Positions 12,295 through 41,347 of a stretch of 63,748 nucleotides of DNA are shown here, in pieces. The position numbers were made by a program, and so were the translations under genes. Within the stretch, counting starts at the first letter, position 1, and the number at the start of each line of letters is the position of its first letter. The notes under the pieces were generated by a model, which searched no databases, was not told the origin of the DNA, and worked only from the letters and a program-made list of their open reading frames with translations. Source of the DNA: Minisyncoccota bacterium (GTDB lineage: Bacteria; Patescibacteriota; Minisyncoccia; Phycocordibacterales; Phycocordibacteraceae). Where the stretch lies: contig JBAYJI010000001.1 in NCBI GenBank assembly GCA_041665205.1, positions 1-63,748 of the forward strand, in the 5' to 3' direction.

Positions 12295-12308
12295 GGGGTG
12301 TTTCTTTT
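12281..12308 (+). terminator. Intrinsic terminator overlapping the stop codon of the radical SAM gene
   Basis: Stem CACCCCTC (12281-12288) / GAGGGGTG (12293-12300), loop GCTT, then TTTCTTTT. The TGA stop (12292-12294) lies inside the hairpin. Convergent minus-strand gene ends at 12310. Confidence 0.65.
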
Positions 12309-12309
12309 C

Positions 12310-12879: not shown

Positions 12880-12892
12880 GAAAGGGAATATA

Positions 12893-25677: not shown

Positions 25678-26424
25678 ATGCGCGTCATTGCCCGGCTCGA
25701 TATCAAAGGTCCCAGCCTGATTAAGACGATCCGTACCGAAGGGTTGCGGATCATGGGAGACCCTCGGGTGTTTGCGGAGCGCTACTATGAGGGAGGTGCC
25801 GATGAGCTTATATATATGGACATTGTCGCGAGTCTGTATCAACGGAATCTCGACTTCGAACAGCTCCGCAACGTTTCCGAGAATGTATTTGTTCCGATTA
25901 CGGCCGGGGGCGGCATTCGTTCGGTCGGTGATATCGAAGCAGCGCTTCGCGCAGGTGCCGACAAGGTCGCTATCAACACGTTTGCGATACACCACCCCGA
26001 ATTCCTGACAGAAGCGGTGGAGCGTTTTGGCGCACAGTGTATCGTGCTCTCGGTCGAAGCGAAGAAGACGAGTGACAGGAAGTGGGAGGCCTATACCGAC
26101 GGTGGGCGCGAGAAGACGGGTGTCGACGCTTTGGAGTGGATCACTCGCGGCGTCAGGCTCGGTGTCGGGGAGATATTACTGACGTCAGTTGATAGAGACG
26201 GCACGAAGACCGGGTACGATCTTGAACTCATCCGCGCAGTCGCGAATACTACGGCCGTTCCGGTCATCGCTCACGGCGGTGCCGGGAGCGCGGAGGACCT
26301 GCTCGCTGCCGCGCACGTAGGTGCCGACGCAGTATCCGCTTCTTCGATCTATCATTACAATCTGACCTCATTGCCGCAGGTGAAAGAGTTTCTGCGAGCG
26401 CAGGGAACCGCGATACGCATATGA
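25678..26424 (+). CDS. hisF: Imidazole-glycerol-phosphate-synthase cyclase subunit paralog (HisF/WbuZ-like), glycan amidotransferase partner
   Basis: MRVIARLDIKG...GADELIYMDI...PITAGGGIRS...GADKVAINT...GEILLTSVDRDGT...IAHGGAG. Genomic context is glycan synthesis, not his biosynthesis. Confidence 0.85.
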   Translation: MRVIARLDIKGPSLIKTIRTEGLRIMGDPRVFAERYYEGGADELIYMDIVASLYQRNLDFEQLRNVSENVFVPITAGGGIRSVGDIEAALRAGADKVAINTFAIHHPEFLTEAVERFGAQCIVLSVEAKKTSDRKWEAYTDGGREKTGVDALEWITRGVRLGVGEILLTSVDRDGTKTGYDLELIRAVANTTAVPVIAHGGAGSAEDLLAAAHVGADAVSASSIYHYNLTSLPQVKEFLRAQGTAIRI

Positions 26425-27053
26425 AAAAGGATCCAACTATCGTCATCATCGATTCCGGCGTCGGGAACTTATGGAGCGTTCTCAAGGCGGTTCGTCGCTT
26501 CGCGCCCACCGCGTTCATCACTGAAGAGAAGGAGGGGGTTGAAGCCGCCGACGCGATTATCTTACCGGGGGTCGGTACCTTCAAGGCGGGTATGGACGGC
26601 CTTGTCGTGCGCGGACTCGTCGAACCGATACGGGCGGCGGCGGAGCGCGGTGTACCGATATTAGGAATTTGTCTCGGGGCGCAGCTCTTGCTCGAGCGCG
26701 GGTATGAATTCGGCGAACATGAAGGTCTTGGTCTTATTTCTGGCGAGGTCGTACCGTTTCCCGAGCTGCCTTCTGGTGTGAAGGTGCCGGCCATCGGCTG
26801 GCAAGAGGTCGTGCCGACGGATCTACAGTCAGCAATGCTCTTTGCGGGCATCGCGAAGCCGTTCTTCTATTTTGTACACTCGTATGTCCTCGCGCCCTCC
26901 GTGCCGGGGACAGCGCTTGCGGGGACGACCTATGGCGGCTATGCTTACTGCGCAACGGTCGGACAAGGGAATGTCTACGGGACGCAGTTCCATCCCGAGA
27001 AAAGCGGTGAAGCAGGTTTGCAACTTATACAAAATTTCATTCGTTCAATATAG
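26421..27053 (+). CDS. hisH: Glutamine amidotransferase subunit paralog (HisH/WbuY-like)
   Basis: ATGA overlap. IVIIDSGVGNLWSV, ILPGVGTF, catalytic GICLGAQLL, C-terminal GTQFHPEKSG. Confidence 0.85.
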   Translation: MKKDPTIVIIDSGVGNLWSVLKAVRRFAPTAFITEEKEGVEAADAIILPGVGTFKAGMDGLVVRGLVEPIRAAAERGVPILGICLGAQLLLERGYEFGEHEGLGLISGEVVPFPELPSGVKVPAIGWQEVVPTDLQSAMLFAGIAKPFFYFVHSYVLAPSVPGTALAGTTYGGYAYCATVGQGNVYGTQFHPEKSGEAGLQLIQNFIRSI

Positions 27054-27055
27054 AT

Positions 27056-28315
27056 ATGGGTACGACACCTACCGGCATGTACGGGCTTCCGACTGATGTG
27101 AAGTTTTGCAAGAAGTGCGTTATTTCAAACCAAGCGCCGACATCGGCAGTGGAGTTTACGCATACGGCAAAGACGCTGAAGAATACACTCCCGTTCAACG
27201 AGGAGGGTATTTGCGATCCGTGCCGTGCGGCAGCGGCGAAACGCGACGCCATCGATTGGGGAAAACGCGAAGACGAGCTCAAGGCGCTCTGCGACAAACA
27301 TCGGAGCTCGGACGGCTCCTATGATTGCTTGGTGCCGGGCTCTGGCGGCAAGGATAGCTTCATGGCCGCGCACTTGTTGAAATATAAGTATGGAATGCAT
27401 CCTTTGACCTGCACCTGGGCGCCCGCAATCTATACGCCCTGGGGACTTCGGAATCTCCAGCGTTGGATTCATGCAGGTTTTGATAATTACCTTGCGACCC
27501 CGAACGGTCGGACGCATCGTCTCCTGGCTCGTCTTTCACTCGAGAATATCTTCCATCCTTTTCAGCCGTTCATTATCGGTCAGAAAGGCCTGGCACCTAA
27601 GATTGCGCAGCGCTTCAATATCCCACTCGTATTTTACGGCGAAAGCGAAGCTGAGTATGCAAGTCCGATTGCTGACGGCTCGAGTGCGCAGCGCGACTGG
27701 AAGTATTTCACCACGCACGACGAGTCGGAGATCCATCTTGGCGGCGTGTCGCTCAAAGAGCTTAAGGAGAAATATGGTGTCGAGCGGGGAGAGCTTGCGA
27801 TGTACCTCCCCACCGATCCAGAGCAAGTGAAAGAGGCTGGTATTGAAGTGCACTATCTGGGTTACTACCATAAATGGCATCCGCAGGGTGCCTACTACTA
27901 CGCCGTGGAGCATGGCGGCTTCGAGGCGAGCCCCGAGCGTACGCCCGGTACCTACAGCAAATACATCTCGATAGACGACAAGATCGATGATCTCCACTAC
28001 TGGACAACATTCATCAAGTTCGGGTTCGGACGCGCGACCTATGATGCGTCGCAAGAAATCCGCAATGGCGAAATCACGCGCGAGGAAGGCGTAGCGCTGG
28101 TGAAGCGTTTCGATGGCGAATTCCCCGAACGCTTTATCGACGAGCTTCTCGGTTATCTCTCGATCACAGAGAAAGAGTTCCCGAAAGCGTTCAAGGAGTT
28201 CGAACATCCGGCCATGGACCGCGAGTACTTTATGCAGCTTGCTGACAAATTCCGCGCACCGCACCTGTGGAAGAAGGAGGACGGCGAATGGAAACTTCGT
28301 CATCACGTATACTGA
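27056..28315 (+). CDS. N-acetyl sugar amidotransferase (PP-loop ATP pyrophosphatase; WbpG/PseA/WbuX family)
   Basis: N-terminal Cys motifs CKKCVISN...CDPC and PP-loop LVPGSGGKDSFMAA. Immediately follows the hisF/hisH paralogs. Confidence 0.8.
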   Translation: MGTTPTGMYGLPTDVKFCKKCVISNQAPTSAVEFTHTAKTLKNTLPFNEEGICDPCRAAAAKRDAIDWGKREDELKALCDKHRSSDGSYDCLVPGSGGKDSFMAAHLLKYKYGMHPLTCTWAPAIYTPWGLRNLQRWIHAGFDNYLATPNGRTHRLLARLSLENIFHPFQPFIIGQKGLAPKIAQRFNIPLVFYGESEAEYASPIADGSSAQRDWKYFTTHDESEIHLGGVSLKELKEKYGVERGELAMYLPTDPEQVKEAGIEVHYLGYYHKWHPQGAYYYAVEHGGFEASPERTPGTYSKYISIDDKIDDLHYWTTFIKFGFGRATYDASQEIRNGEITREEGVALVKRFDGEFPERFIDELLGYLSITEKEFPKAFKEFEHPAMDREYFMQLADKFRAPHLWKKEDGEWKLRHHVY

Positions 28316-28845
28316 TGCGAACGTTTATCGGCGAGCGGGTATATGTGCGACCGATGTCCGAGACGGATGCCACGTCGGTCTATGCCGCGTGGCTCAACGA
28401 TTCTGAGGTTAATAAATATCTGGCGACTAAGAGTACGACCGTGGAAGAGTTGAAGCGGTACATCGCTACAAAAAATGGCCAGTCCGATACGCTGCTGTTC
28501 GGTATGTTCCTCAAAGAGGACAATCGGCACATTGGTACCATTAAGCTTGAGCCTATAGATATTGCAAATAAACGAGCGACTATCGCGATTATGCTCGGCG
28601 ACAAAAGAGAATGGGGCAAGGGCTATGGTCCCGAATCCATGCGGCTGCTCATAACGCACTGCTTCAACGAACTCGGGCTCGAGGAAGTAAATCTCGGAGT
28701 TCTCGCACAGAATGTCTCTGCGATTAAGTCCTACGAGAAAATCGGATTTAAAGAGGTAAAAAGGGAAGCGGGCGCGATTACCTATCCTAATGGAATCTTT
28801 GACCAAGTGACCATGACACTCCATACTGATTCTTATGTCAGCTAA
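28315..28845 (+). CDS. GNAT-family N-acetyltransferase (RimJ/RimL/PseH-like)
   Basis: MRTFIGERVYVRPMSETDA..., WGKGYGPESMRLLITHCF, YEKIGFKEV. TGATG junction at 28313-28317. Alternative start 28288. Confidence 0.75.
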   Translation: MRTFIGERVYVRPMSETDATSVYAAWLNDSEVNKYLATKSTTVEELKRYIATKNGQSDTLLFGMFLKEDNRHIGTIKLEPIDIANKRATIAIMLGDKREWGKGYGPESMRLLITHCFNELGLEEVNLGVLAQNVSAIKSYEKIGFKEVKREAGAITYPNGIFDQVTMTLHTDSYVS

Positions 28846-30151
28846 AAAGACCGGGCAGAAGCTTTGGGAAAAGGCAAAGACGCTCATTCCTGGCGGCAGC
28901 CAGCTCTTGTCGAAGCGTGCGGAGCTATTTGCGCCCGATCAGTGGCCGGCCTACTATTCACGAGCAGAGGGAGCGTACGTGTGGGATCTAGACGGCACAA
29001 GATATCTCGACATGCTCAACATGGGTATCGGGAGCTGCGTGCTAGGCTACGCTGATAAGGACGTTAATGACGCGGTTATAGGTGCGGTTAATCGGGGCGC
29101 CATGTCCACACTTAATTGTCCGCAAGAGGTCGAACTTGCCGAGCTCCTGCTCCTGCTCCATCCGTGGGCTAGTATGGTGCGCTATGCGCGTACCGGTGGC
29201 GAGTCTATGGCGATTGCATCACGCATTGCACGCGCATATACCGGACGTGACACGATTGCATTCTGCGGCTACCACGGCTGGGCCGACTGGTATCTCGCGA
29301 CCAATCTGCAGACGAAAGATGCACTTGCTGATCACCTGCTTGCAGGTCTCGAACCACGCGGTGTGCCGAAAGGTCTTGCGGGTACCGTGCTCCCCTTCCA
29401 TTACAACAAGATTGAGGAGCTCGAGGCAATCGTTGCCAAGAATCCGGATCTCGCAGCGATCATCATGGAACCTATGCATGGCGAATATCCCAGAGACGGC
29501 TTTTTGGAGAAGGTACGGGAGATCGCGACACGCACTGGTGCAGTGCTTGTTTTCGATGAGATTACGATAGGATTTCGTCTTGCGATCGGTGGTGCGCATC
29601 TCACTCTCGGGGTCGAGCCCGACCTGGCCATATTTGGTAAAGGAATGAGCAATGGCTATGCGATGGCAGCCATCATCGGCAAACATGATGTCATGCAGGC
29701 GGTGCAGGACACTTTCATATCGAGTACCTACTGGACCGAGGCGATAGGGCCGACCGCAACACTCGCCGCTATTGCGAAGATGCAGCGACTGAATCTGCCC
29801 GAGCATCTTTCAGCAATCGGCAGCAAGGTTAAAGACATCTGGAATACGACGGCCGCACGCCATTCTCTCACGACAACATCGAGCGAAGTGCTCCCGATCC
29901 TATTCTTCTCATTCAAAGACGGAGATAGTGCGGTGATGAAGACACTGTTCGTGCAGGAGATGCTGAAGCGCGGGATTCTCGCGACAACGCAGTTCTACGC
30001 CTCTTATGCGCATACGGATGAGCACATTGCAGAGTACTCGCGGGCGCTCGATGAGGTGTTCGCCCTGATGGGGAAGGCAGTGAAAGCAGGGAATGCAAAA
30101 GACTTGCTTGAAGGGCCTGTCGCGCACACCGGCTTCCAGCGGCTTAATTAA
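28835..30151 (+). CDS. Class III PLP aminotransferase (glutamate-1-semialdehyde aminomutase-like)
   Basis: VFDEITIGFRLAIGGAH...DLAIFGKGMSNGYAMAAIIG (PLP-Lys in FGKG). 11-nt overlap with the GNAT gene. Confidence 0.8.
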   Translation: MSAKKTGQKLWEKAKTLIPGGSQLLSKRAELFAPDQWPAYYSRAEGAYVWDLDGTRYLDMLNMGIGSCVLGYADKDVNDAVIGAVNRGAMSTLNCPQEVELAELLLLLHPWASMVRYARTGGESMAIASRIARAYTGRDTIAFCGYHGWADWYLATNLQTKDALADHLLAGLEPRGVPKGLAGTVLPFHYNKIEELEAIVAKNPDLAAIIMEPMHGEYPRDGFLEKVREIATRTGAVLVFDEITIGFRLAIGGAHLTLGVEPDLAIFGKGMSNGYAMAAIIGKHDVMQAVQDTFISSTYWTEAIGPTATLAAIAKMQRLNLPEHLSAIGSKVKDIWNTTAARHSLTTTSSEVLPILFFSFKDGDSAVMKTLFVQEMLKRGILATTQFYASYAHTDEHIAEYSRALDEVFALMGKAVKAGNAKDLLEGPVAHTGFQRLN

Positions 30152-30872
30152 GGAAATTCTGTATCCGCTCCGCGATTGTCTCGCGGTTCTGATAGAGCAT
30201 TTCGCCGGTCACGAAATCTTGCGGATCATCAAGATCGACCGCGCGCCAGCGTTCAATCTCGTAGCCGACGAGCTTGCCGCCGAGGAGCGAACGCTCGCGG
30301 CGAAGGACGGCCGTCTTGATGAGATATATCATGCAACCGTCGAGTTTGTAGGCTTTCGGCAGCTGCTGACGATTTGTACTTACGGCATAGCCGTCGTAGA
30401 GCGTCCCGAGTGCATCGGTGGTGTCCTTGGTGTACAAACCATTCTCCGTGCGGCAGACACTAACCAGTGAGTCGCCGTCGCGTTCTTCAAGGAGTCGGAT
30501 CGCCTTCTCGATATCATCTGATTCACGCAAGGGCGAAGTCGTCTGGAGGAGGAGGAGACGGGAAGGCTCGTACCCCTCCGTGTCGCGCAGATGATCGAGC
30601 ATGTGGATGATGGCGTCTATGACCGGACTCTTGTCTCCGGCCATCTCGGGCGGGCGCATGACCGGCACTTCCGCACCATACTCGCGTGCGACGGCAGCGA
30701 TCTCTGCATCATCAGTCGATACGACGACACGATTCACGCTCGGTGCACCTTTAGCCGCTGCAATCGAGTAGGCGATAAGCGGTTTGCCGCAGAAAGGGCG
30801 GATATTCTTTTTCGGTATGCCTTTTGAGCCGCCACGGGCTGGCACGAGGGCGAGTATGTTTCGGTCGCTCAT
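30144..30872 (-). CDS. neuA: Acylneuraminate/nonulosonate cytidylyltransferase (NeuA/LegF/PseF-like)
   Basis: ILALVPARGGSKGIPKKNIRPFCGKPLIAYSI signature. Its stop overlaps the stop of the convergent aminotransferase inside TTAATTAA (30144-30151). Confidence 0.85.
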   Translation of the reverse strand: MSDRNILALVPARGGSKGIPKKNIRPFCGKPLIAYSIAAAKGAPSVNRVVVSTDDAEIAAVAREYGAEVPVMRPPEMAGDKSPVIDAIIHMLDHLRDTEGYEPSRLLLLQTTSPLRESDDIEKAIRLLEERDGDSLVSVCRTENGLYTKDTTDALGTLYDGYAVSTNRQQLPKAYKLDGCMIYLIKTAVLRRERSLLGGKLVGYEIERWRAVDLDDPQDFVTGEMLYQNRETIAERIQNFLN

Positions 30873-30893
30873 TGTGATATTATTGTGCCACGT

Positions 30894-31637
30894 ATGTCTC
30901 TAGCGAACAAGACAGTCATGGTGCTCGGCGGCGGCGGACTCCTCGGGAGCGAGATTGTTCGTGCCTGTGTGTCAGAGGGCGCGCGAGTTGTGGCGGCGGA
31001 TATCGCCGAGCCGAGGGTTCTCCCAGAAGGCGCGGTTTTTTTCGCTTGTGACGCAACGAAAGAAGACGAGGTGAACACTCTTGCAGAGAAGATGCGTCGG
31101 GACTTCGGGCGCGTGGATGCGGTCATCAATGCGACATATCCGAAGACCAAAAACTACGGCAAAAAGTTCGAGGATGCAGATATCGATGAGATGCTTGAGA
31201 ATGCGACATTGCATATGAAGACCTGCATGACAGTTGTGCGCGGGTTCCTCCCGCTCTTTAAAGAGCAGAAGAGCGGGTCGGTTATATTTTTCGGTTCAAT
31301 CTACGGTGTTGCTGCGCCGCGCTTTGAAATATATGAGGGGACGAATATGACTGTCCCGGCAGAATATGCTGCGGCGAAAGGCGGCACACTTTCTCTTATG
31401 CGTTATTTTGCCGCATTGCTTGGGTCGTGTAATGTCCGAGTGAATGCAATTTCCCCCGGTGGTATTGCTGACAATCAGTCACAATCATTTATCGACGCAT
31501 ACAGCAAACATCTTCTCGTGGGGGAAGGGTTACTTCGCCCCGAAGACGTCAGCGGAGCAGCTGTGTTTCTCGCGTCAGACGCGTCGAAGATGATGACTGG
31601 TCAGAATCTCATCATAGACGGCGGCTGGACGCTGTAA
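30894..31637 (+). CDS. Short-chain dehydrogenase/reductase (PtmA-like oxidoreductase)
   Basis: VMVLGGGGLLGSEIV Rossmann, catalytic Y-x3-K in AEYAAAKGG. The ORF track starts at GTG 30885; ATG 30894 is preferred. Confidence 0.8.
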   Translation: MSLANKTVMVLGGGGLLGSEIVRACVSEGARVVAADIAEPRVLPEGAVFFACDATKEDEVNTLAEKMRRDFGRVDAVINATYPKTKNYGKKFEDADIDEMLENATLHMKTCMTVVRGFLPLFKEQKSGSVIFFGSIYGVAAPRFEIYEGTNMTVPAEYAAAKGGTLSLMRYFAALLGSCNVRVNAISPGGIADNQSQSFIDAYSKHLLVGEGLLRPEDVSGAAVFLASDASKMMTGQNLIIDGGWTL

Positions 31638-31640
31638 TCC

Positions 31641-32687
31641 ATGGAGATACAGATTGGAAATATGAGGCTCGGAGAAGGCGCACCCGTCTTCGTTATAGCT
31701 GAAGCAGGAGTCAATCATAATGGCGATAGTGCGCTCGCGAAGAAGCTCATTGACGCGGCTGCAGCGGCAGGCGCCGATGCAATCAAGTTCCAGACATTTA
31801 CGCCCGAGGAGCTCGTGAGCGAAGCTGCCCCGCAAGCGGCATATCAGACGGCAAACACCGGCAAGGAAGAGAGTCAGATCTCGATGTTGCGCGACCTCGT
31901 GCTCCCGTATGGAGATCATCAGGCGCTGAAATCTTATGCAGAAGGGAAGGGATTGGTCTTCCTTTCGACACCATTCAGCATTCCCGATGCTGACTTTTTA
32001 GAGACGCTCGGCATGGCAGCGTACAAGATCCCGTCAGGCGAGCTGACCAATATCCCTTTTTTGGCGCACATCGCAAGAAAAGGGAAGCCCATTATTCTCT
32101 CAACCGGGATGGCGACACTCGAAGAGGTTCGTGAAGCACTTGATACGCTGGCCGGAAACGGCGCGACCGAGATTGCACTCTTCCACTGCACCACCGAATA
32201 CCCTACACCGCCTGCCGATATCAATCTGCGAGCGATGCAAAAGCTCGCGCAAGAATTCGGCTTGCCGACCGGGCTCTCGGATCACAGTGAGGGTATCAGT
32301 GTTCCGGTTGCCGCAGTGGCACTCGGGGCACAATTAATAGAAAAGCATTTTACCCTCGACCGCACATTGCCCGGTCCTGACCACAAGGCATCACTCGAAC
32401 CAGATGAGTTAAAGAAGATGATAGGAGACATCCGGATCATCGAGCGCGCGCTCGGTTCGTCTGAAAAAAAACCGGTTGCAGGGGAATTGGAGACAGCGCG
32501 TGTTGTCCGGAAAAGTGTCGTCGCTCGGCGCGATATTCTAATAGGCACCCGCATCACTGCCGAGGACATCTACATCGTTCGTCCCGGTACCGGCATTCCA
32601 CCCAAACATTTTGATGAGATTCTTGGCAAAACCGCACGAGAAACTATTTCGCAGGCGACGCCGTTAGAGTGGAATATGCTCTCCTAA
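31641..32687 (+). CDS. neuB: Nonulosonic acid synthase (NeuB/LegI/PseI family) with C-terminal SAF domain
   Basis: APVFVIAEAGVNHNGD, DAIKFQTF, YKIPSGELTN, LSDHSEG, EKHFTLD. C-terminal SAF-like RKSVVARRDILIGTRIT. Confidence 0.9.
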   Translation: MEIQIGNMRLGEGAPVFVIAEAGVNHNGDSALAKKLIDAAAAAGADAIKFQTFTPEELVSEAAPQAAYQTANTGKEESQISMLRDLVLPYGDHQALKSYAEGKGLVFLSTPFSIPDADFLETLGMAAYKIPSGELTNIPFLAHIARKGKPIILSTGMATLEEVREALDTLAGNGATEIALFHCTTEYPTPPADINLRAMQKLAQEFGLPTGLSDHSEGISVPVAAVALGAQLIEKHFTLDRTLPGPDHKASLEPDELKKMIGDIRIIERALGSSEKKPVAGELETARVVRKSVVARRDILIGTRITAEDIYIVRPGTGIPPKHFDEILGKTARETISQATPLEWNMLS

Positions 32688-32691
32688 CGAC

Positions 32692-33846
32692 ATGAAGCGC
32701 AAAAACATCCTCATCGTCACGGGTACACGGGCAGAGTACGGTCTCCTGCGCTCGACCATGAAGGCTATCCGCGCGCAGGGCGGATTAGCACTTTCCGTCC
32801 TCGTGACCGGCATGCATTTGTCGGGCACATTTGGTAGGACCGTTACGGAGATTGAAAAGGACGACTTTCCCATCGCCGCCAAAGTAAAGATGACTCCCGG
32901 AGAGGACTCTTCCGCAGCGATGGCTGCATCTGTCGGAATAGGAATTCAAGGCATGGTACGGGCATTCAAAAAGATCCGTCCTGATGTCGTGCTGGTGCTT
33001 GGCGACCGAGTGGAAGCGCTGGCTGCAGCGGTCGCGGCTGCGTATATGAATATCGTTGTTGCGCATGTTCATGGTGGTGACAAAACACAAGCAGGACTCG
33101 ATGAGAGCGCTCGGCATGCCATTACGAAGCTGGCTCACGTACATTTTCCCGCGACCAAAAAAAGCGCCGAACGCATCAAGCGCCTCGGCGAGAAGGGGAA
33201 TATGATTCATGTCGTCGGCGCTCCTGGGCTCGACGCTATCGTGTACGGTGACATGACGTCGGAGGATCAGCTCTCCGCGAAGTTTAATCTGGATATTTCT
33301 CGGCCGTTCGTTCTGTTGGTTCAGCACTCCGTGAGTACTGATCCAAAAAGCGCGAAGCAACAGATGATTGAGACACTCCGCGCGCTTGTACGCGTGAAAA
33401 TCCCCGTTATCGTGGTTTATCCGAATGCTGATGCCGGCGGCAGAGCAATGATTACGGTCGTAAAGGAATACGAACGAAAACACACTTTTATCCAGGCGTA
33501 TCAGAACATCAGTAGGAGCGACTATCTCGGACTGCTGCGCACTGCAGCCGTGCTCGTCGGCAACTCTTCAAGCGGCATCGTAGAGGCGGCATTCTTCCGC
33601 GTGCCGGTTGTTAACATCGGTCAGCGCCAAGCGGGAAGGGAACGTGCTGCAAACGTGCTTGATACGCATCCCGATGCTCGTGCGATAGAGCAGACGTTGC
33701 GGAAGGCGCTCTCGGAGCAGTTTCGCGCTGGTCTTCACACATTGAAGAATCCGTATGGGAATGGGAGAGCGGGCGAGAAGATCGCCGGTGTGCTTGCAGG
33801 TTTGCACATCGATCAGGCGCTCCTGCAGAAGCAGATTACCTATTGA
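32692..33846 (+). CDS. neuC: Hydrolysing UDP/GDP-N-acetylhexosamine 2-epimerase (NeuC/LegG family)
   Basis: ILIVTGTRAEYGLL, VLVLGDRVEALAAA, AHVHGGD, SSSGIVEAAFFRVPVVNIGQRQ. Confidence 0.85.
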   Translation: MKRKNILIVTGTRAEYGLLRSTMKAIRAQGGLALSVLVTGMHLSGTFGRTVTEIEKDDFPIAAKVKMTPGEDSSAAMAASVGIGIQGMVRAFKKIRPDVVLVLGDRVEALAAAVAAAYMNIVVAHVHGGDKTQAGLDESARHAITKLAHVHFPATKKSAERIKRLGEKGNMIHVVGAPGLDAIVYGDMTSEDQLSAKFNLDISRPFVLLVQHSVSTDPKSAKQQMIETLRALVRVKIPVIVVYPNADAGGRAMITVVKEYERKHTFIQAYQNISRSDYLGLLRTAAVLVGNSSSGIVEAAFFRVPVVNIGQRQAGRERAANVLDTHPDARAIEQTLRKALSEQFRAGLHTLKNPYGNGRAGEKIAGVLAGLHIDQALLQKQITY

Positions 33847-33856
33847 TCTGGAACAC

Positions 33857-34627
33857 ATGACCACGCCGATGAACATCGTATGGGTTTCAGCAAACACCTT
33901 CGGACTTGAACTGCTCAAGACCGCCGCTGCGCTCTCTGACGTATCGATACAGGCCGTCATAACGCTCTCGGAGGTAGCAACAACGCGGATGTATGATGGC
34001 GTGCCCGCAAGGGCGTGGGAAGACGTCGGTATCCCGGTCGTGCGCACCGAACGTCTCGATGAAGATCTCGATGTCGTGCGGAGGCTCGCACCGAGTCTTC
34101 TTATTGTGGCTGGGTGGCGGCAGGTGCTTTCGGAGGGTCTCCTTACACTTCCGTCTGCCGGTGTCGTCGGGTTTCATCCGACCCTGCTTCCTCACGGGCG
34201 CGGGTCGGCACCAATCATCCATAGCATTCTTGAGGGCCCACATGAGTCGGGTGTCACGTTGTTCTACCTTAACCAAGGGGTCGATACTGGTGATATCATC
34301 GGACAAGAGCCTTTCTGTATCGAGGAGAGTGATTATGCGAGTGATGTCTACACGAAAGTTATCGGAGCCGGAAGGGTTCTCGTTGAGAAGTATGTGCCAC
34401 TTCTCGCTCAAGGACGTGCACCGCGCGTGCCGCAGGACGTTGCACACGCGACCGTGTATCCGCGGCGGGGGCTGCGGGACAACGAGCTTCTGCCGGAAGA
34501 TTCATGGGAGACGAAGCGCCGTAAGGTGCGCGCATTGGCTCCCCCGTATGATGGAGCTTTTCTCTTACGGGACGGACAGAAAGTCATTATTAGGACAATA
34601 GAAGAGTTAGAAGAAACCTATGCATAA
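33857..34627 (+). CDS. Formyltransferase (Fmt/ArnA N-terminal-domain family)
   Basis: LLIVAGWRQVL...GVVGFHPTLLPHGRGSAPIIHSILEG (HxSLLPxxRG motif). Start ATG 33857. Confidence 0.8.
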   Translation: MTTPMNIVWVSANTFGLELLKTAAALSDVSIQAVITLSEVATTRMYDGVPARAWEDVGIPVVRTERLDEDLDVVRRLAPSLLIVAGWRQVLSEGLLTLPSAGVVGFHPTLLPHGRGSAPIIHSILEGPHESGVTLFYLNQGVDTGDIIGQEPFCIEESDYASDVYTKVIGAGRVLVEKYVPLLAQGRAPRVPQDVAHATVYPRRGLRDNELLPEDSWETKRRKVRALAPPYDGAFLLRDGQKVIIRTIEELEETYA

Positions 34628-35273
34628 CATCCTTGTGATAGCTCCGCATCCGGACGACGAAGTGCTCGGATGCGCCGGTACCATACGCAAATACGCTAAT
34701 AAAGGTGCTTCGGTGCATGTGTGCATAGTTACGAAGGCTTATGAACCGGAGTGGTCGGCAGAATTTATACGCAACCGCCCTAACGAGGTGCGCCGCGTTG
34801 CAGATATTCTTGGGTCGGCGGGAGTGTCTTTCCTTGACTTCCCGACGGTAGAACTGGACACGGTTCCCCAAAGAGATATCAGCAAGGCCATCTTGGCTGT
34901 CATTCAGGAAATAAAGCCGGACAAGCTTTACATTCCGCACCACGGCGATCTCAACCGAGATCATCAGCTGGTCCATGAGGCTGCGCTCGTCGCGGCTCGT
35001 CCAACTCTGGAATGGAGTGTTGCCCGCGTGCTCGCGTACGAAACGCCTTCGGAAACAGAGTGGGGTGTAGCGCCCTTTTTACCAAACACGTATGAAGATA
35101 TCACCGAGACCCTTCAGAAGAAACTTGAAGCGATGCAGGTTTATGCAAGCGAAGTGAGGTCCTTTCCGCATCTGCGATCTCTGAAGTCCCTAGAGGCGCT
35201 TGCAATAAAACGCGGTTCGGAAATATGTCGCGGTGCTGCGGAAGCTTTTATGCTTCTTCGCTCGATTCAATGA
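34620..35273 (+). CDS. PIG-L/LmbE-family N-deacetylase
   Basis: ILVIAPHPDDEVLGCAGT zinc-binding motif and HHGDLNRDH. 8-nt overlap with the formyltransferase. Confidence 0.85.
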   Translation: MHNILVIAPHPDDEVLGCAGTIRKYANKGASVHVCIVTKAYEPEWSAEFIRNRPNEVRRVADILGSAGVSFLDFPTVELDTVPQRDISKAILAVIQEIKPDKLYIPHHGDLNRDHQLVHEAALVAARPTLEWSVARVLAYETPSETEWGVAPFLPNTYEDITETLQKKLEAMQVYASEVRSFPHLRSLKSLEALAIKRGSEICRGAAEAFMLLRSIQ

Positions 35274-35274
35274 T

Positions 35275-35682
35275 ATGACGAATCGTTTTGATGATTGGGT
35301 GCCGCCAGAAATGAAACACGGTGAGATGACGAAGTGGCTTTGGGTGGTATTTCGGCCGGAGAATCTTACTCTTGGGAGGAAGACTGACATTGGCGCATTT
35401 ACTGCCATCTTCGCGCATCATGGAGTTGAGATAGGCGACGAAGTGCAGATCGGTTCCCACTGCTCGATTTATAGCCTCAATACAGAAGACAATACGGCGG
35501 GTAAGGTGACGATTGGGAAGGGCGCGATGATCGGTACGCACAGCACCATCATGCCGGGAGTGACTGTCGGTGCGGGTGCCGTTATCGGTGCCTACAGCTT
35601 CGTAAAGAAGGATATCCCGGCTGGCGCTCTCGCTTATGGCGTACCGGCCCATGTTGTAGAAAAGAAGGGGATAAAAGGGTAA
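35275..35682 (+). CDS. Hexapeptide-repeat N-acetyltransferase (PglD/LegH/WbbJ-like)
   Basis: IGDEVQIGSHCSIYS...VTIGKGAMIGTHSTIMPGVTVGAGAVIGAYSFV. Start ATG 35275. Confidence 0.8.
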   Translation: MTNRFDDWVPPEMKHGEMTKWLWVVFRPENLTLGRKTDIGAFTAIFAHHGVEIGDEVQIGSHCSIYSLNTEDNTAGKVTIGKGAMIGTHSTIMPGVTVGAGAVIGAYSFVKKDIPAGALAYGVPAHVVEKKGIKG

Positions 35683-35728
35683 CCTTGCCCGCCCGGGGCT
35701 TGTTTACTACTATTAAGCGATAATCTTC

Positions 35729-36889
35729 ATGAAAGAGCCCCGTTCCAGCGCTCAGGCAGAATCTGCCCGAAAGCCTATCCCTGTCACCAGGCCGACGCTG
35801 GAGGATTTCGCTGCCTACGAGCCGCTGTTTAGGGAGAGTATTAAGAGCGGTATGCTTACGACCAATAAGCATGTGCAGCTCTTTGAAAAGAAAACAGCGC
35901 GCTACCTCGGAGTGAAGCACTGTGTTGCGGTCTCCTCGTGTACCTCGGGACTGATGCTAGTACTGAAAGGTCTGGGACTCACTGGCGAGGTGATTGTGCC
36001 GAGCTTCACGTTCTCGGCGACTGGTCACGTGCTCTTGTGGAATAATCTTAAGCCGGTATTTGCAGACATAGATCCGCAGACGTACACGATAGATCCGAAG
36101 TCAGTTGAGAAGCTGATTACGCCGCGCACATCGGCGATACTTGCCGTGCATGTCTTCGGTGTGATGTCTGACGTGAAGAAGTTGGAGGCTCTGGCGAAGA
36201 AATATAAACTGAAGCTCGTATTTGACGCGGCTCACGCATTCGGCTCCGACACAGGCGGTGTTCGCGCGGGGAATTTCGGCAACGCTGAAGTGTTCAGCTG
36301 CAGTCCCATAAAGGTCCTGACTGCCGGCGAAGGGGGGATTGTCGCGACCAATGATGACGAGCTTGCGGCATTCTGCCGTTTGGGCCGTAACTACGGCGAT
36401 GATGGTACGAACAATACGCTGTTTGCAGGTCTGAGCGCTCGCATGTCCGAGTTCCATGCGGCCATCGGGCTCCGATCGCTTGCGAAGCTCCCGATAAACC
36501 TGAAGAATCGGCGATTGAAAGCCCTGCAGCTCATTTCGCGACTGAAAAAGATTGAACCAAGGCTGCGGTTCCAGTTGATACCACGAAACACCAGAACGAC
36601 GTACTACGTACTTTCTGTGTTTATAGATCCGGAAATGCTCGGCTATACGCGCGATGAACTCTTTGATTTCTTCGCGGCACAGGGTATCGCGACGCGGAAA
36701 TATTTCTATCCACCGCTCCACAAACAGACCACGTACCAACATTTCGTTTCGAAACGGAAGCCGCTCCCGGTGACAGATAACGTCGCAGAGAGGGTCATAT
36801 CCTTACCGTTATATGCGCATCTGTCGGCGGAAGAAGTGGATCGCATCATTGGAACGTTTCAGGAATTTACAAGCGCGATAATTAAATAA
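35729..36889 (+). CDS. DegT/DnrJ/EryC1/StrS-family PLP sugar aminotransferase (PseC/LegC/PglE-like)
   Basis: VAVSSCTSGLMLVL, VIVPSFTFSATG, FDAAHAFG, FSCSPIKVLTAGEGG (PLP-Lys). Confidence 0.85.
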   Translation: MKEPRSSAQAESARKPIPVTRPTLEDFAAYEPLFRESIKSGMLTTNKHVQLFEKKTARYLGVKHCVAVSSCTSGLMLVLKGLGLTGEVIVPSFTFSATGHVLLWNNLKPVFADIDPQTYTIDPKSVEKLITPRTSAILAVHVFGVMSDVKKLEALAKKYKLKLVFDAAHAFGSDTGGVRAGNFGNAEVFSCSPIKVLTAGEGGIVATNDDELAAFCRLGRNYGDDGTNNTLFAGLSARMSEFHAAIGLRSLAKLPINLKNRRLKALQLISRLKKIEPRLRFQLIPRNTRTTYYVLSVFIDPEMLGYTRDELFDFFAAQGIATRKYFYPPLHKQTTYQHFVSKRKPLPVTDNVAERVISLPLYAHLSAEEVDRIIGTFQEFTSAIIK

Positions 36890-36890
36890 T

Positions 36891-37829
36891 ATGAAAGAGT
36901 TTAAAGATAAGATCGTTCTGGTGACCGGGGGCACTGGTTCCATCGGATCGGAGATTGTCCGCCAATTGCTTAAGGCCGATGTTTCAAAGATACGTATCTA
37001 CAGTCGCGATGAGCACAAGCAACACGAGTTGCGCCAAGAGCTCGGTGCAAATTTGCGTCTGACATTCCTCCTTGGTGATGTGCGCGATAAGGATCGTCTC
37101 GACTTCGCCTTCAAGGGAGTCGACATCTGTTTCCATGCAGCGGCGCTCAAGCATGTACCGTTCTGTGAATATAATCCGTTTGAAGCGCTCAAGACAAATG
37201 CCATTGGCACGCAGAATGTCATCGATGTTTCGATACGAAACAATCTCGAAAAGGTTATTGCCATTTCGACCGACAAAGCTGTCAGTCCCGAATCCGTTCT
37301 CGGAGCTTCGAAGCTCATGGCAGAACGCCTTATCGCTGCAGCGAATCTCTCAGCCGGCAGCAGTCGTACGAAGTTCGCGTGCGTTCGCTTCGGTAATGTG
37401 GTGGGGTCGCGCGGCTCGGTCATACACCTCTGGCAACGTCAGATTGAAGAGGGCGGTCCGGTGACCGTCACGCACAAAAAGGTAACCCGTTTCTTTATGG
37501 AGATACCGCAGGCAGTTGGCCTCATCTTCGATGCCGTGAGGCTGATGCGGGGTGGAGAGATATTCGTGTTGAAGATGAAGAAGCATCGTATTGCCGATTT
37601 CGCGCTGGAGGTCATCAAGAAATTTAGTAACGGCAAGAAAATCGCAATAAAGTTCATCGGGTTGCGCCCCGGGGAGAAGCTTGATGAAGAACTCTTTACA
37701 AACGAAGAGCGCTCACACATGCTTGAAACCAAGGACATGTACATCATCACGCCGCAGCACATTCTGCCCGGTTACGAGTACCCGTCGTCCAATTACCCAG
37801 GTTCTCGCAAGGCCGTCATCAGGCGTTAG
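36891..37829 (+). CDS. Nucleotide-HexNAc 4,6-dehydratase (PseB/LegB/FlaA1/CapD short form)
   Basis: VLVTGGTGSIGSEIVRQL, IYSRDEHKQHEL, FHAAALKHVPFCEYNP, ISTDKAV...GASKLMAE. Confidence 0.85.
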   Translation: MKEFKDKIVLVTGGTGSIGSEIVRQLLKADVSKIRIYSRDEHKQHELRQELGANLRLTFLLGDVRDKDRLDFAFKGVDICFHAAALKHVPFCEYNPFEALKTNAIGTQNVIDVSIRNNLEKVIAISTDKAVSPESVLGASKLMAERLIAAANLSAGSSRTKFACVRFGNVVGSRGSVIHLWQRQIEEGGPVTVTHKKVTRFFMEIPQAVGLIFDAVRLMRGGEIFVLKMKKHRIADFALEVIKKFSNGKKIAIKFIGLRPGEKLDEELFTNEERSHMLETKDMYIITPQHILPGYEYPSSNYPGSRKAVIRR

Positions 37830-40592: not shown

Positions 40593-40599
40593 GGAGCGC

Positions 40600-40629
40600 A
40601 AAACGCCCCGCCTTTAGGCGGGGCGTTTT
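40600..40629 (+). terminator. Intrinsic terminator
   Basis: AAAACGCCCCGCC / loop TTTA / GGCGGGGCGTTTT, a perfect 13-bp stem including A- and T-tracts. Confidence 0.85.
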
Positions 40630-40646
40630 GTGTCTCTGTTATGCAG

Positions 40647-40674
40647 TTGACACCTCACACCGCAGGCGTATACT
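40647..40674 (+). promoter_or_regulatory. Near-consensus sigma70-type promoter (TTGACA, 16-nt spacer, TATACT)
   Basis: TTGACA 40647-40652 and TATACT 40669-40674. Confidence 0.5.
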
Positions 40675-40747: not shown

Positions 40748-41347
40748 ATGCAAACAGTCCTTTTGATAGACGGAGAGAATTTCAAAGGCAAGATAAAGAC
40801 TATTTTTAAAGAAGCTGGGAAAGAACGACCGATTTGGTATGAATACAATTTCAAGGGCCTTTTGGATAAGGTACTGAACGGACTTCAGATAGATCAGAAA
40901 GTTTTCTATTTCGCCCGCGTAAAGGAGCACCAAGACAGTAAAGAAAAATCAAAGTTACTCATTGAAGAACAGCGTTTATTGAAAACTCATTTGGAGAAGC
41001 AGGGTTTCGAAGTAGTACTGAGCGGTAGAGTACGCGGACAATGGGAAGACGGACAGGGAGGGAAGAAGATTCTTGTCTTCAAGGAGAAGGGTGTCGATGT
41101 GAAAGTTGCCGTAGATATGGTGAGCCTTGCCTGCGACAAGAAGGTGAAAGAAATAATTCTCGGCAGCTCAGATTCTGATCTCCAACCAGCGATTAAAGAA
41201 GTGCGAGACCGCAGCGTCAGTTGTGTATACCTCGGCTTCGAAGCCCAGCCGAATAAAGGTCTTTCATATACCACAAACCGGACGCTCTTGATACGTAATT
41301 CGGAATTGTTTGAGTTCGAGAAGATTCAAAGAATTCTAGTTCGCTAA
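40748..41347 (+). CDS. NYN-domain (LabA/PIN-like) putative ribonuclease
   Basis: VLLIDGENF N-terminal acidic motif, GVDVKVAVDM, ILGSSDSDLQPAI: the Asp constellation of NYN/LabA nucleases. Clearly more AT-rich than its surroundings. Confidence 0.75.
   Translation: MQTVLLIDGENFKGKIKTIFKEAGKERPIWYEYNFKGLLDKVLNGLQIDQKVFYFARVKEHQDSKEKSKLLIEEQRLLKTHLEKQGFEVVLSGRVRGQWEDGQGGKKILVFKEKGVDVKVAVDMVSLACDKKVKEIILGSSDSDLQPAIKEVRDRSVSCVYLGFEAQPNKGLSYTTNRTLLIRNSELFEFEKIQRILVR

Follow-up and report, generated by a model that had tools for sequence, protein, structure and literature searches.

Several described systems make nonulosonic acids (NulOs) of the kind considered here, with varied substituents on their nitrogens. 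Acetamidino legionaminic acid is known from Legionella and Campylobacter jejuni, 5-N-formyl-legionaminic acid is known from Halorubrum, and in Kuenenia, whose cluster combines a deacetylase with a formyltransferase, CMP-sugars with free or formylated amines have been detected. The dehydratase SpsM of Bacillus subtilis resembles CapE and PseB and has the triad T-x9-M-x3-K, yet acts as UDP-GlcNAc 4,6-dehydratase in a legionaminic (Leg) pathway; PglF can stand in for it when it is lost, but PseB cannot (PMC7439481). In the sections below, we compare with these systems a gene block from the window, that is, the whole stretch of 63,748 nucleotides that was analysed.

The locus and its host

Positions 23.8–40.6 kb of the window form a tightly packed block within a surface-glycan island of about 44 kb, with neighbouring genes that abut or share a few bases. 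The features are listed below with their strand and supporting match (curated cut-offs in brackets).

23793-25661, +, 622-aa protein with a TagF/TarL-like GT-B C-terminal half; profile against TarL, positions 405-617, E=5e-5
25678-26424, +, HisF-like cyclase subunit (WbuZ/AglZ type) of an acetamidino-forming amidotransferase; His_biosynth 208 bits
26421-27053, +, HisH-like glutaminase subunit; TIGR01855 188 bits (105)
27056-28315, +, WbuX-family PP-loop N-acetyl sugar amidotransferase (N-acetyl to acetamidino); TIGR03573 362.7 bits (203)
28288-28845, +, GNAT N-acyltransferase, weakly PseH-like; Acetyltransf_3 90 bits
28835-30151, +, class III (GSA-aminomutase-like) aminotransferase; Aminotran_3 142 bits
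30144-30872, -, CMP-nonulosonate synthetase (cytidylyltransferase); CTP_transf_3 85 bits
30894-31637, +, PtmA-like short-chain dehydrogenase (SDR); NF006619 259.5 bits (255)
31641-32687, +, nonulosonate synthase, NeuB/LegI type; TIGR03569 461.6 bits (399.65)
32692-33846, +, hydrolysing NDP-sugar 2-epimerase, NeuC/LegG type; TIGR03568 426 bits (236)
33857-34627, +, formyltransferase-like protein (ArnA-N/Fmt-like); Formyl_trans_N 73 bits
34620-35273, +, PIG-L/LmbE-family de-N-acetylase; PIG-L 93 bits
35275-35682, +, short (135 aa) left-handed beta-helix (LbH) acyltransferase; Hexapep
35729-36889, +, DegT-family sugar 4-aminotransferase, DesI/perosamine-synthase-like; DegT 350 bits
36891-37829, +, soluble UDP-GlcNAc 4,6-dehydratase, Polysacc_synt_2 family; Polysacc_synt_2 356 bits
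37869-39623, +, ABC exporter (MsbA/PglK/HepA-like); ABC_membrane and ABC_tran
40596-40633, +, strong terminator-like hairpin with a 17-bp stem, closing the block; consensus scan
40647-40674, 11/12 promoter match after the hairpin; consensus scan only
41377-43554, +, Wzy_C (O-antigen ligase/PglL-like) membrane protein with TPR repeats; Wzy_C 65 bits and TPR

All 14 genes between 25678 and 37829 are intact open reading frames with families assigned through Pfam and NCBIfam, in agreement with the original prediction apart from small shifts of start codons, which we adopted from gene calls on identical contigs; the cytidylyltransferase is indeed the only minus-strand gene of the block. Curated cut-offs were exceeded by NeuC, NeuB, WbuX, HisH and the PtmA-related SDR model NF006619, and equivalog cut-offs were missed by the cytidylyltransferase, the DegT enzyme and the HisF-like protein. 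Copies of the region occur in two independent metagenome assemblies, with NeuB identical and the other proteins 99-100% identical.

The SecA protein matches one named for a 'Candidatus Paceibacterota' MAG at 100% identity, and others bearing the names Kaiserbacteria or Parcubacteria at 81-87%. This likeness places the host in the candidate phyla radiation (Parcubacteria, Kaiserbacteria-like), which makes the reduced genome proposed earlier a reasonable suggestion. The relatives were obtained from 0.1 um filtrates of groundwater; the host is an ultra-small, groundwater-type bacterium, and the idea that its sugar is host-mimicking finds no support.

In sister Parcubacteria the locus occupies the same chromosomal site, with modules swapped. 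Two of these loci, L056 and L058, retain the order CMP-transferase, NeuB, NeuC, acyltransferase, DegT, dehydratase; L059 departs from it only in having an inverted CMP-transferase separated from NeuB by an SDR, as in the window. Among the sisters, identity is 76-83% for NeuB, only 35-46% for NeuC and 30-69% for the CMP-transferase; this is a hypervariable surface-glycan locus.

Core enzymes and the branch of the pathway

Family searches recovered the core set of a complete NulO pathway, as had been predicted, and we think it rather probable that the block encodes a UDP-GlcNAc-based, legionaminic-type pathway with N-tailoring, TagF-like transfer and ABC export. The nucleotidyltransferase for GDP-GlcNAc that the original prediction had proposed to look for is not present and is not needed, as UDP routes are known. 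The 2-epimerase is of the hydrolysing kind and not a WecB-type enzyme, the objection raised beforehand: it scores 113 bits with the wecB model (cut-off 210), and its best solved relative is the Acinetobacter baumannii GDP/UDP-diNAcBac hydrolysing 2-epimerase (244 bits), with the human GNE epimerase domain at 196 bits and non-hydrolysing enzymes at no more than 65. The synthase scores above the cut-off of the NeuB/Leg model and below that of PseI (325 bits, cut-off 340.25); a neighbour-joining tree groups it with synthases from loci of which nearly all contain NeuC and most contain DegT, apart from C. jejuni PseI and from the clade of Neisseria meningitidis NeuB and NeuC-only loci, and JGI names its close homologues N,N'-diacetyllegionaminate synthase. 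The cytidylyltransferase lies under the PseF cut-off (157.7 bits against 205.7), with its best relatives (37-40%) in the NeuC-containing clusters L011, L040, L059 and L006, and no PseG-like protein was found. On the epimerase and synthase comparisons, to which the DesI/perosamine-synthase likeness of the DegT enzyme can be added, a Leg-type product is favoured over a pseudaminic (Pse) one, in line with the branch originally proposed.

The models passed by these two enzymes, TIGR03568 and TIGR03569, also cover true Neu5Ac enzymes, and in Campylobacter the PglF/E/D-like trios have diNAcBac as their end product, so that one may conceive of two products: CMP-Neu5Ac or a derivative, made from UDP-GlcNAc by NeuC, NeuB and the cytidylyltransferase, and a bacillosamine-type sugar for another glycan position, made by the dehydratase, the DegT enzyme and the LbH enzyme. 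We consider this highly improbable, given that the swapping of other parts leaves the six genes contiguous in the window and in three sister loci, that the epimerase is nearer the diNAcBac-specific enzyme than the GNE domain, and that the synthase lies outside the N. meningitidis clade.

When NeuB, NeuC and the dehydratase were placed among characterised enzymes, as originally suggested, the first two came out as Leg-type, but the dehydratase did not. Among solved relatives it scores best with Pen (264 bits) and FlaA1/PseB (251), followed by FnlA (237), CapE (231) and PglF (187), and it is distant from both known LegB types (TIGR04180, 60 bits; 3PVZ, 65 bits). Its triad is T-x9-L-x3-K, with Leu at the position of Tyr in PseB and Pen and of Met in CapE and FnlA, a variant without a tested example. 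As the dehydratase is nearer PseB and Pen than LegB or PglF, the first enzyme may act like the inverting PseB/FnlA/CapE class, which could give a 5,7-diamino nonulosonate of other stereochemistry, whether a 4-epimer, an 8-epimer or a hybrid built on a hexose of L configuration. The aminotransferase type also varies between sister loci: in L056 and L059 the partner of this dehydratase type is a PseC/LegC-like DegT enzyme, in the window a DesI-like one (DesI model 292 bits, PseC 219 and LegC 175, all under cut-off; best solved relative DesI, 224 bits), and the low mutual identity of NeuC in the four sister loci fits different substrates. We nevertheless regard such a product as unlikely: the synthase and the epimerase group with Leg-type enzymes, SpsM is an example of a CapE/PseB-like sequence working as an ordinary 4,6-dehydratase in a Leg pathway, and L058 pairs a DesI-like DegT enzyme, 62% identical to that of the window, with a GalE/RmlB/LegB-like dehydratase, which suggests that the 4-keto intermediate is the same whichever of the two dehydratase types supplies it.

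In the legionaminic-type route, the DesI-like enzyme would then install the 4-amino group and the LbH enzyme would acylate it. The latter is presumed to be the 4-N-acetyltransferase; it lacks the N-terminal domain that PglD and NeuD have, matches the NeuD model over its C-terminal part only, and has ambiguous solved relatives, its likeness to O-acetyltransferases being at least equal to that to N-acetyltransferases. In the minimal sister cluster L058 it is the sole acyltransferase, and in L059 a sugar N-formyltransferase occupies its position. The 2-epimerase would release a 6-deoxy-mannose-configured hexose, which the synthase would condense with PEP and the cytidylyltransferase convert to the CMP-sugar.

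N-tailoring enzymes and the class III aminotransferase

The rich N-tailoring set of the original prediction holds for the amidotransferase trio, the PIG-L/formyltransferase-like pair and the GNAT but was over-counted, as the SDR is PtmA-like (FlagModPtmA model 179.5 bits, under the cut-off of 350; 76% identical to the L059 copy in the same position) and, PtmA being a standard Leg-cluster component, is probably no tailoring enzyme. Catalytic motifs are intact in WbuX (SGGKDS at residue 96, two CxxC motifs at 18 and 53), HisH (GICLG nucleophile motif, FHPE) and PIG-L (HPDDE), and the HisF-like protein scores slightly under the cut-off of both the WbuZ (262.5 bits) and hisF (267.6 bits) models. 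The formyltransferase-like protein, which matches the ArnA N-terminal domain at 93 bits and PseJ at 46, retains the GFHPTLLP motif and the catalytic Asp and has Gly in place of the catalytic Asn, a change found in all six aligned PIG-L-linked homologues; the gene pair recurs in L004, L006, L011, L018 and L050. The trio would convert one N-acetyl group to acetamidino, and PIG-L may strip an N-acetyl, with the freed amine re-acylated by the formyltransferase-like protein, by the GNAT (PseH model 49.6 bits, cut-off 93), or by both. With three candidate acyltransferases and only two nitrogens to acylate, the cluster may yield a mixed product. Acetimidoyl and formyl-type substituents, as first proposed, are plausible in light of the Legionella, Campylobacter, Kuenenia and Halorubrum precedents.

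The class III aminotransferase has GSAM as its best solved relative (162 bits; aminoglycoside C-6' aminotransferases, 125) and belongs to a widespread, uncharacterised family that runs to more than 120 protein clusters (63-86% identity), those with names being from Kaiserbacteria, Parcubacteria or the Patescibacteria group. A NeuB-family gene lies within 10 kb of it in 11 of the 11 fully read loci outside the window, it usually adjoins the CMP-transferase in the loci sampled, and on a plasmid of the cultured organism P. pseudonitzschiae it is fused to CTP_transf_3. The enzyme would act in the same pathway and may supply an aminated precursor; alternatively, it may aminate or epimerise the sugar near the CMP-activation step. 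Together with the PtmA-like SDR, it is the least certain part of our best explanation.

It is possible, if doubtful, that these two proteins and the GNAT form a hexosamine-precursor supply and not a tailoring set, for example by transaminating a ketose phosphate such as fructose-6-P and then N-acetylating it, by analogy with the precursor segment of the Campylobacter pathway (PtmA/PtmF/PgmL/PtmE). PtmA has been assigned to the first, GDP-GlcNAc-forming segment of that pathway (PMC4481668), and the SugarBase preprint groups PtmA, PtmF, PtmE and PgmL as precursor components. Operons of Fibrobacterota and Sulfurimonas combine a CMP-transferase, a Gfo-Idh-MocA (PtmF-like) protein, the aminotransferase and an SDR, the aminotransferase filling the place of PtmE in Vibrio-type clusters; in Methylomagnum it is flanked on one side by a split transketolase and on the other by a short NeuB-like gene, after which comes a HAD phosphatase, and in Halorubrum GlmS adjoins the Leg genes. 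The aminotransferase is much better conserved among Parcubacteria (63-86%) than the enzymes exposed to varying substituents (NeuC 35-46%, CMP-transferase 30-69%), which likewise fits an invariant substrate. However, it is also found in canonical pseB-pseC-pseG-pseI clusters, for which no special precursor is required and in which it is fused to the sole cytidylyltransferase, and the window holds no PtmF-like gene; nor is any characterised class III enzyme known to us as a producer of GlcN-6-P.

Transfer, export and comparison with known systems

The legionaminic-type CMP-sugar would probably be used by the TagF-like protein at the start of the block, a candidate CMP-nonulosonate transferase in a role suggested by its match to TarL, found with a profile built from it and four homologues, and by weak GT-B/Capsule_synth matches in Pfam. 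Homologues (46-50% identity) stand immediately 5' of the NulO genes in L056 and L058 and farther upstream in L059, and the NulO transferases of T. forsythia are TagB-like (PMC5420450). The glycan would probably be exported by the ABC protein, a candidate flippase of lipid-linked glycan that matches the HepA, MsbA and PglK models under cut-off and occupies the same place in L058 and L059. Its transfer would probably fall to the Wzy_C/TPR protein, a candidate glycan transferase or polymerase that is 73% identical to the L058 copy and, as there, is followed by MurB.

The gene families, their intact state, the synteny and the mosaic make-up of the locus are shown directly by the sequences; we infer every chemical step, the stereochemistry and the assignment of groups to nitrogens from gene content, in which the positions of the N-substituents and the configuration of the sugar are not readable. 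In its organization, the cluster reshuffles the elements of a pathway type that is already known.

Core enzymes and the predicted sugar

The cluster is real and intact, and it is of a known kind found here in a little-studied lineage; its novelty lies in the combination of known or recurring accessory genes. Every gene named in the original prediction was recovered at its coordinates by ORF listing and by Pfam and NCBIfam scans, gene ends within the block touch or overlap by a few bases, and two independent assemblies hold copies in which NeuB is identical and the other proteins are 99-100% identical. The 2-epimerase, the synthase, the PP-loop amidotransferase, HisH, and the SDR (NF006619) score above curated NCBIfam cut-offs; the dehydratase, DegT, cytidylyltransferase, GNAT, HisF-like protein, and class III aminotransferase lie below every equivalog cut-off though in the right Pfam family. 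Inspection by eye found the expected active-site lysines in both aminotransferase sequences.

The 2-epimerase is of the hydrolysing NeuC type and not PseG, as had been proposed: it scores 426 bits with TIGR03568 (cut-off 236) and 113 with the non-hydrolysing wecB model (cut-off 210), among solved relatives it comes closest to the A. baumannii GDP/UDP-diNAcBac hydrolysing enzyme (244 bits), with human GNE at 196 and non-hydrolysing enzymes at 65 or less, and no window protein scanned matched PseG. The synthase, which carries NeuB and SAF domains, reaches 462 bits with TIGR03569 (cut-off 400) and 325 with the PseI model (cut-off 340). It is not of the KDO or DAHP type, and the epimerase is not of the WecB type, so neither of the two outcomes that the original prediction had set against itself materialized. 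The scores of the synthase against B. subtilis SpsE (222 bits), C. jejuni PseI (209), and N. meningitidis NeuB (201) differ little, so we built a neighbour-joining tree of 63 sequences with tips labelled by gene context. In it the synthase falls, together with three Parcubacteria sisters, inside a large clade in which nearly every locus has NeuC and most have DegT; N. meningitidis NeuB clusters with NeuC-only loci, and C. jejuni PseI with a separate Pse-like cluster type of Kaiserbacteria. Close homologues of the synthase (71-72% identical) bear the JGI name N,N'-diacetyllegionaminate synthase. Among solved relatives the DegT aminotransferase, which matches its family with every equivalog model below cut-off, is DesI/perosamine-synthase-like (DesI 224 bits vs PseC 139), and the cytidylyltransferase, with a CTP_transf_3 domain, has PseF as its sole equivalog match (158 bits, below the cut-off of 206). 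Its identity with the 258-aa enzyme encoded after the aminotransferase in Kaiserbacteria was rejected, BLAST giving no match at 1e-5.

The dehydratase is the weak point in the sugar assignment. This Polysacc_synt_2 protein scores 264 bits with Pen, 251 with PseB, 237 with FnlA, 231 with CapE, and 187 with PglF among solved relatives, is distant from both LegB types, and has the triad T-x9-L-x3-K; assignment to the PseB family itself was rejected on a score under the cut-off and on the Leu in place of the PseB Tyr. B. subtilis SpsM, also CapE/PseB-like but with Met at that triad position, starts a legionaminic pathway, and PglF complements it whereas PseB does not (PMC7439481). Given this precedent PseB-likeness is compatible with either stereochemistry: on whether the enzyme is a retaining dehydratase, giving a D-xylo 4-keto sugar, the PseB-like scores point one way and SpsM the other. 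In the sister Parcubacteria locus L058, a DegT 62% identical to the window's is paired with a GalE/RmlB/LegB-like dehydratase, which suggests that both dehydratase types may supply the same intermediate.

On these family assignments, the product probably has the legionaminic (D-glycero-D-galacto) configuration. Another isomer, toward which the PseB-like dehydratase scores lean, is unlikely, although it keeps an appreciable chance. A Pse cluster is marked by PseG without a 2-epimerase and by a PseI synthase, and here PseG is missing from the scanned proteins, a hydrolysing 2-epimerase is present, and the PseI model stays below cut-off. Neu5Ac made alongside a separate bacillosamine is highly improbable; the tree puts N. 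meningitidis NeuB with NeuC-only loci, and the epimerase scores better with the A. baumannii diNAcBac enzyme than with human GNE.

N-tailoring enzymes and the class III aminotransferase

The acetamidino trio added to this predicted legionaminic-type core is a known system, WbuX/Y/Z, composed of a PP-loop amidotransferase with glutaminase and cyclase-like partners, as found here. WbuX scores 363 bits (cut-off 203) with SGGKDS and two CxxC motifs intact, HisH is above its cut-off with GICLG and FHPE motifs intact, and the HisF-like subunit is slightly under the WbuZ cut-off (262.5 vs 299.7) and also under that of HisF. Legionella and Campylobacter make 5-acetamidino legionaminic acid.

The PIG-L deacetylase, its HPDDE motif intact, forms with the formyltransferase-like gene a pair that recurs beside NeuC or NeuB in Omnitrophota, Lachnospiraceae, Spirochaetales, Cyclobacteriaceae, and Sulfurimonas. 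The Kuenenia cluster combines a deacetylase with a formyltransferase, and CMP-sugars bearing free amines and formylated ones have been found there; the Halorubrum product is 5-N-formyl-legionaminic acid. N10-formyl-THF-dependent N-formyltransferases use an Asn-His-Asp catalytic triad, of which the window protein keeps His and Asp, with Gly for Asn. The same replacement (G-x-H, not N-x-H) occurs in all six PIG-L-linked homologues aligned, from database loci L004, L006, L011, L018, L050, and L051, and the Asn is kept in formyltransferases of the same data set that are unpaired with PIG-L (L023, L025, L044, and L059). The protein, closest among solved relatives to ArnA-N (93 bits) and Fmt, with PseJ at 46 bits, may still act as a formyltransferase. 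The LbH enzyme is short and its homology is ambiguous between O- and N-acetyltransferases; it is the sole acyltransferase of L058, and a formyltransferase takes its place in the sister locus L059, so that position and replacement in sister loci support a putative role as the 4-N-acyltransferase. The sequence fits more than one placement of the acetimidoyl, formyl, and other acyl groups on the nitrogens.

The SDR scores 259.5 with NF006619, a PtmA-related model (cut-off 255), and 179.5 with the PtmA model itself (cut-off 350); PtmA adjoins LegF in clusters of Vibrio, Plesiomonas, and Campylobacter, and according to secondary citations it serves in precursor supply (PMC4481668). The class III aminotransferase is not a true HemL (196 bits against a cut-off of 527, in a context that is always one of glycan genes). 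Over 120 protein clusters are 63-86% identical to it, and those that bear a name come from Kaiserbacteria, Parcubacteria, or the Patescibacteria group. The Kaiserbacteria clusters lack NeuC and have a Pse-like layout (dehydratase, DegT, sometimes PIG-L, aminotransferase, 258-aa cytidylyltransferase, aldo-keto reductase, GNAT, PseI-clade synthase, and Capsule_synth protein), resembling the L. pneumophila serogroup 6/12 locus as known from a published gene table. Fibrobacterota and Sulfurimonas have an operon of cytidylyltransferase, PtmF-like gene, aminotransferase, and SDR, and Halorussus aquaticus holds Gfo-Idh-MocA, cytidylyltransferase, and aminotransferase genes together. In Pseudosulfitobacter pseudonitzschiae the aminotransferase, 51% identical to the window's in the part concerned, is fused to the only cytidylyltransferase domain of an otherwise canonical cluster, pseB-pseC-AKR-GNAT-hyp-[fusion]-[PseG::GNAT]-pseI, whose PseG is itself fused to a GNAT.

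Fused aminotransferase of P. pseudonitzschiae
L065 (plasmid pSMR1-1, NZ_CP022416.1), 11266-13299: CTP_transf_3::class III aminotransferase fusion, 677 aa, domains at residues 4-200 and 279-618

In Methylomagnum the aminotransferase has a split transketolase on one side and, on the other, a short NeuB-like gene with a HAD phosphatase after it. This belongs to a second type of module with the same aminotransferase family, seen at L067 7226-13671 (a Methylomagnum ishizawai plasmid) and L059 1518-5788, which holds a "glycosyltransferase family protein" (a PGAP name also borne by the Halorussus cytidylyltransferase), the split transketolase, the aminotransferase, an SDR, a short SAF-less NeuB-like synthase, and the HAD phosphatase, and which may be a pathway to a different amino-ulosonic acid.

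Gene context ties the family firmly to predicted nonulosonate pathways, of which it is a widespread companion: members are spread over Parcubacteria, a Micrarchaeota MAG, a haloarchaeon, Legionella, Rhodobacterales, Fibrobacterota, Campylobacterota, Spirochaetales, and Lachnospiraceae, and since several of these carriers are cultured it is directly testable. Its conservation and its PtmA/PtmF surroundings speak for a role in supplying an aminated precursor; the fusion, and the logic of combining an oxidoreductase, an aminotransferase, and a GNAT, speak for a step on the nonulosonate itself. A bolder reading, which we consider doubtful, is that the aminotransferase would form a unit with the extra GNAT and an oxidoreductase, here the SDR, and that this unit would act on the nonulosonate around CMP activation, adding an acetylated amino group (a triamino nonulosonate) or re-setting an amine-bearing stereocentre. 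The genes of the unit lie around the cytidylyltransferase, and in Pseudosulfitobacter the aminotransferase is fused to a cytidylyltransferase domain. On the same reading the locus would give each Parcubacteria strain its own surface code, used in attaching to hosts or evading phages; such a sugar would be of a type so far undescribed.

Mosaicism of the locus and its genomic setting

Close NeuB homologues led to three related Parcubacteria loci (L056, L058, and L059), all anchored by the same 620-630-aa protein; the ABC exporter is common to L058 and L059, and the Wzy_C/TPR and MurB flank is found in L058. The six core genes stand alone in L058, L056 has in addition a HisF/HisH fusion and WbuX, and L059 has a sugar N-formyltransferase with an N_formyltrans_C domain in place of the LbH gene, a PtmA-like SDR (76%), a PtmF-like Gfo/Idh/MocA gene, and the class III aminotransferase (86%). 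The window is laid out like L056 with two insertions, one of the formyltransferase-like and PIG-L genes between NeuC and LbH, the other of the GNAT, aminotransferase, inverted cytidylyltransferase, and SDR genes between WbuX and NeuB.

Protein identity among the loci compared
NeuB: 76-83%
Dehydratase: 71-83%
NeuC: 35-46%, every pair
Cytidylyltransferase: 30-69%
DegT: 33-83%

WbuX is nearer an Omnitrophota copy (59%) than the sister copy (41%), and DNA similarity is restricted to islands. This is strong mosaicism: the surface-glycan locus holds its chromosomal position and is hypervariable in content. A locus that stays in place while its epimerase, aminotransferase, cytidylyltransferase, and tailoring genes are swapped shows the pattern left by diversifying pressure on a surface molecule, and this suggests that the molecule takes part in recognition between the cells and their hosts or phages; the hypervariability among sister Parcubacteria and the uncharacterized aminotransferase family are the most useful leads. 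Genes for a Zn-alcohol dehydrogenase, a two-subunit ThDP enzyme (E1_dh and Transket_pyr), and a PfkB kinase lie upstream of the nonulosonate (NulO) genes in L056 and L058 and at the right end of another database locus, L061; they accompany NulO genes in the sister Parcubacteria and are absent from the window.

From 2 to 44 kb the window is a single large glycan island with many GT4, GT2, GT9, and GT47 genes, FkbM and other methyltransferases, a B12/radical-SAM enzyme, an AMP-binding enzyme, two PMT_2 genes, the ABC exporter, and the Wzy_C/TPR gene, followed downstream by MurB, SecA, Obg, and GatB. A profile built from the 622-aa protein upstream, together with homologues, matches the TagF-like polymerase TarL (E=5e-5), and nonulosonate transferases of T. 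forsythia are TagB-like (PMC5420450); together with the ABC and Wzy_C/TPR proteins, this suggests that the glycan would be built on a lipid carrier, flipped by the PglK/MsbA-like ABC protein, and transferred to protein or wall via the Wzy_C/TPR protein. A strong terminator-like hairpin at 40596-40633 ends the block. Between the glycan export and transfer genes lies an NYN-domain (RNase-like) gene (40748-41347) with its own strong promoter match (40647-40674), present in both contigs near-identical to the window and missing at the matching position in L058.

Elsewhere in the island, a UDP-glucose/GDP-mannose dehydrogenase family ORF at 7103-7969 has only 288 aa and a partial N-terminal domain, and may be truncated, and at 10798-15037 the B12-binding radical-SAM enzyme (plus strand) adjoins a minus-strand pair, an LbH acyltransferase and the 714-aa AMP-binding enzyme, which may further tailor the same glycan by acylation or methylation. 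The right end (55800-63748) holds about 17 small minus-strand ORFs (60-224 aa), none of at least 150 aa after 56481, with GC up to 0.63 and negative GC skew at 56-58 kb; ten of the small-ORF proteins at 55.8-63.3 kb had no match in a PHROG scan, the 224-aa protein had none in Pfam, and Rfam and tRNA scans of the window found no RNA gene.

SecA has a 100% identical counterpart at NCBI, named for a "Candidatus Paceibacterota" MAG, and shares 81-87% identity with many proteins that carry the names Kaiserbacteria, Parcubacteria, or Minisyncoccota, which places the organism in the candidate phyla radiation and makes the reduced genome earlier proposed a fair inference; the host mimicry ascribed to the sugar found no support. 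The nearest GTDB contig, L003 (CAYHMS010000003.1), is labelled "uncultured Candidatus Saccharibacteria" and shares 10,903 nt at 100% identity with a contig from Hainich groundwater; a Saccharibacteria origin was rejected on the names of the SecA relatives (Paceibacterota, Kaiserbacteria, or Parcubacteria), and the label looks wrong or the contig mis-binned. Bacteria of the candidate phyla radiation have tiny genomes and depend on other cells, and despite this about 44 kb of the 64-kb window is given to surface-glycan genes, including those for a costly sialic-acid-like sugar. A limited literature search found nothing linking nonulosonates to this radiation.

Comparison with known systems

The UDP-linked legionaminic systems of L. 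pneumophila, A. baumannii, and B. subtilis (Sps) share with the window the predicted order of chemistry starting at UDP-GlcNAc, from a Polysacc_synt_2-type dehydratase through a DegT enzyme, a presumed acetyltransferase, and the synthase to a putative CMP-transferase; the 2-epimerase is closest to the A. baumannii enzyme, and the dehydratase is CapE/PseB-like, as SpsM is, with Leu for Met in its triad. The window differs in having NeuC where B. subtilis has the PseG-like SpsG, a presumed acetyltransferase that is a 135-aa LbH protein without the PglD/NeuD N-terminal domain, and the additional deacetylase, formyltransferase-like protein, GNAT, and class III aminotransferase.

With the CMP-legionaminic pathway of C. 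jejuni (LegB/C/H/G/I/F, PtmA/E/F, and PtmG), the window shares LegG- and LegI-type enzymes, a putatively LegF-type cytidylyltransferase with a PtmA-like SDR adjoining it, and a WbuX/PtmG-type amidotransferase predicted to provide the acetamidino group. The GDP-linked route of that pathway, marked by PtmE and the LegB and LegC equivalogs, is nevertheless unlikely here, because the LegB (60 bits vs 475) and LegC (175 vs 420) models score far under their cut-offs and the window has no PtmE guanylyltransferase or PtmF homologue, on which ground a supply of GDP-GlcNAc was also rejected; the CTP_transf_3 protein is the only nucleotidyltransferase in the window, and without a PtmE-like enzyme the UDP route is to be expected.

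By gene content, the window is like Ca. Kuenenia stuttgartiensis in having a PIG-L-type deacetylase and a formyltransferase-like gene among the core genes, and like Halorubrum sp. PV6, where a formyltransferase alone adjoins LegG; the window's formyltransferase-like protein lacks the catalytic Asn, and the window has in addition the acetamidino trio, which itself corresponds to WbuX/WbuY/WbuZ (AglX/Y/Z, PseA/PtmG) except that the HisF-like subunit scores slightly under its cut-offs. To the pseudaminic pathway (PseB/C/H/G/I/F and PseJ) it is drawn by the dehydratase score, a weakly PseH-like GNAT, and a cytidylyltransferase whose best model is PseF, but all four Pse models matched fall under their cut-offs, the synthase scores below that of PseI, PseG is missing from the scanned proteins, and a hydrolysing 2-epimerase is present. 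Finally, the set of aminotransferase, cytidylyltransferase, oxidoreductase, and GNAT in the L. pneumophila serogroup 6/12 LPS locus, the Pse-like Kaiserbacteria clusters, and the P. pseudonitzschiae plasmid has the same adjacency and an aminotransferase of the same family (64-67% identical to Kaiserbacteria copies), whereas those clusters are Pse-like, without NeuC and with a PseI-clade synthase, and employ an aldo-keto reductase and a different, 258-aa cytidylyltransferase, where the window combines an SDR with a legionaminic-type core.
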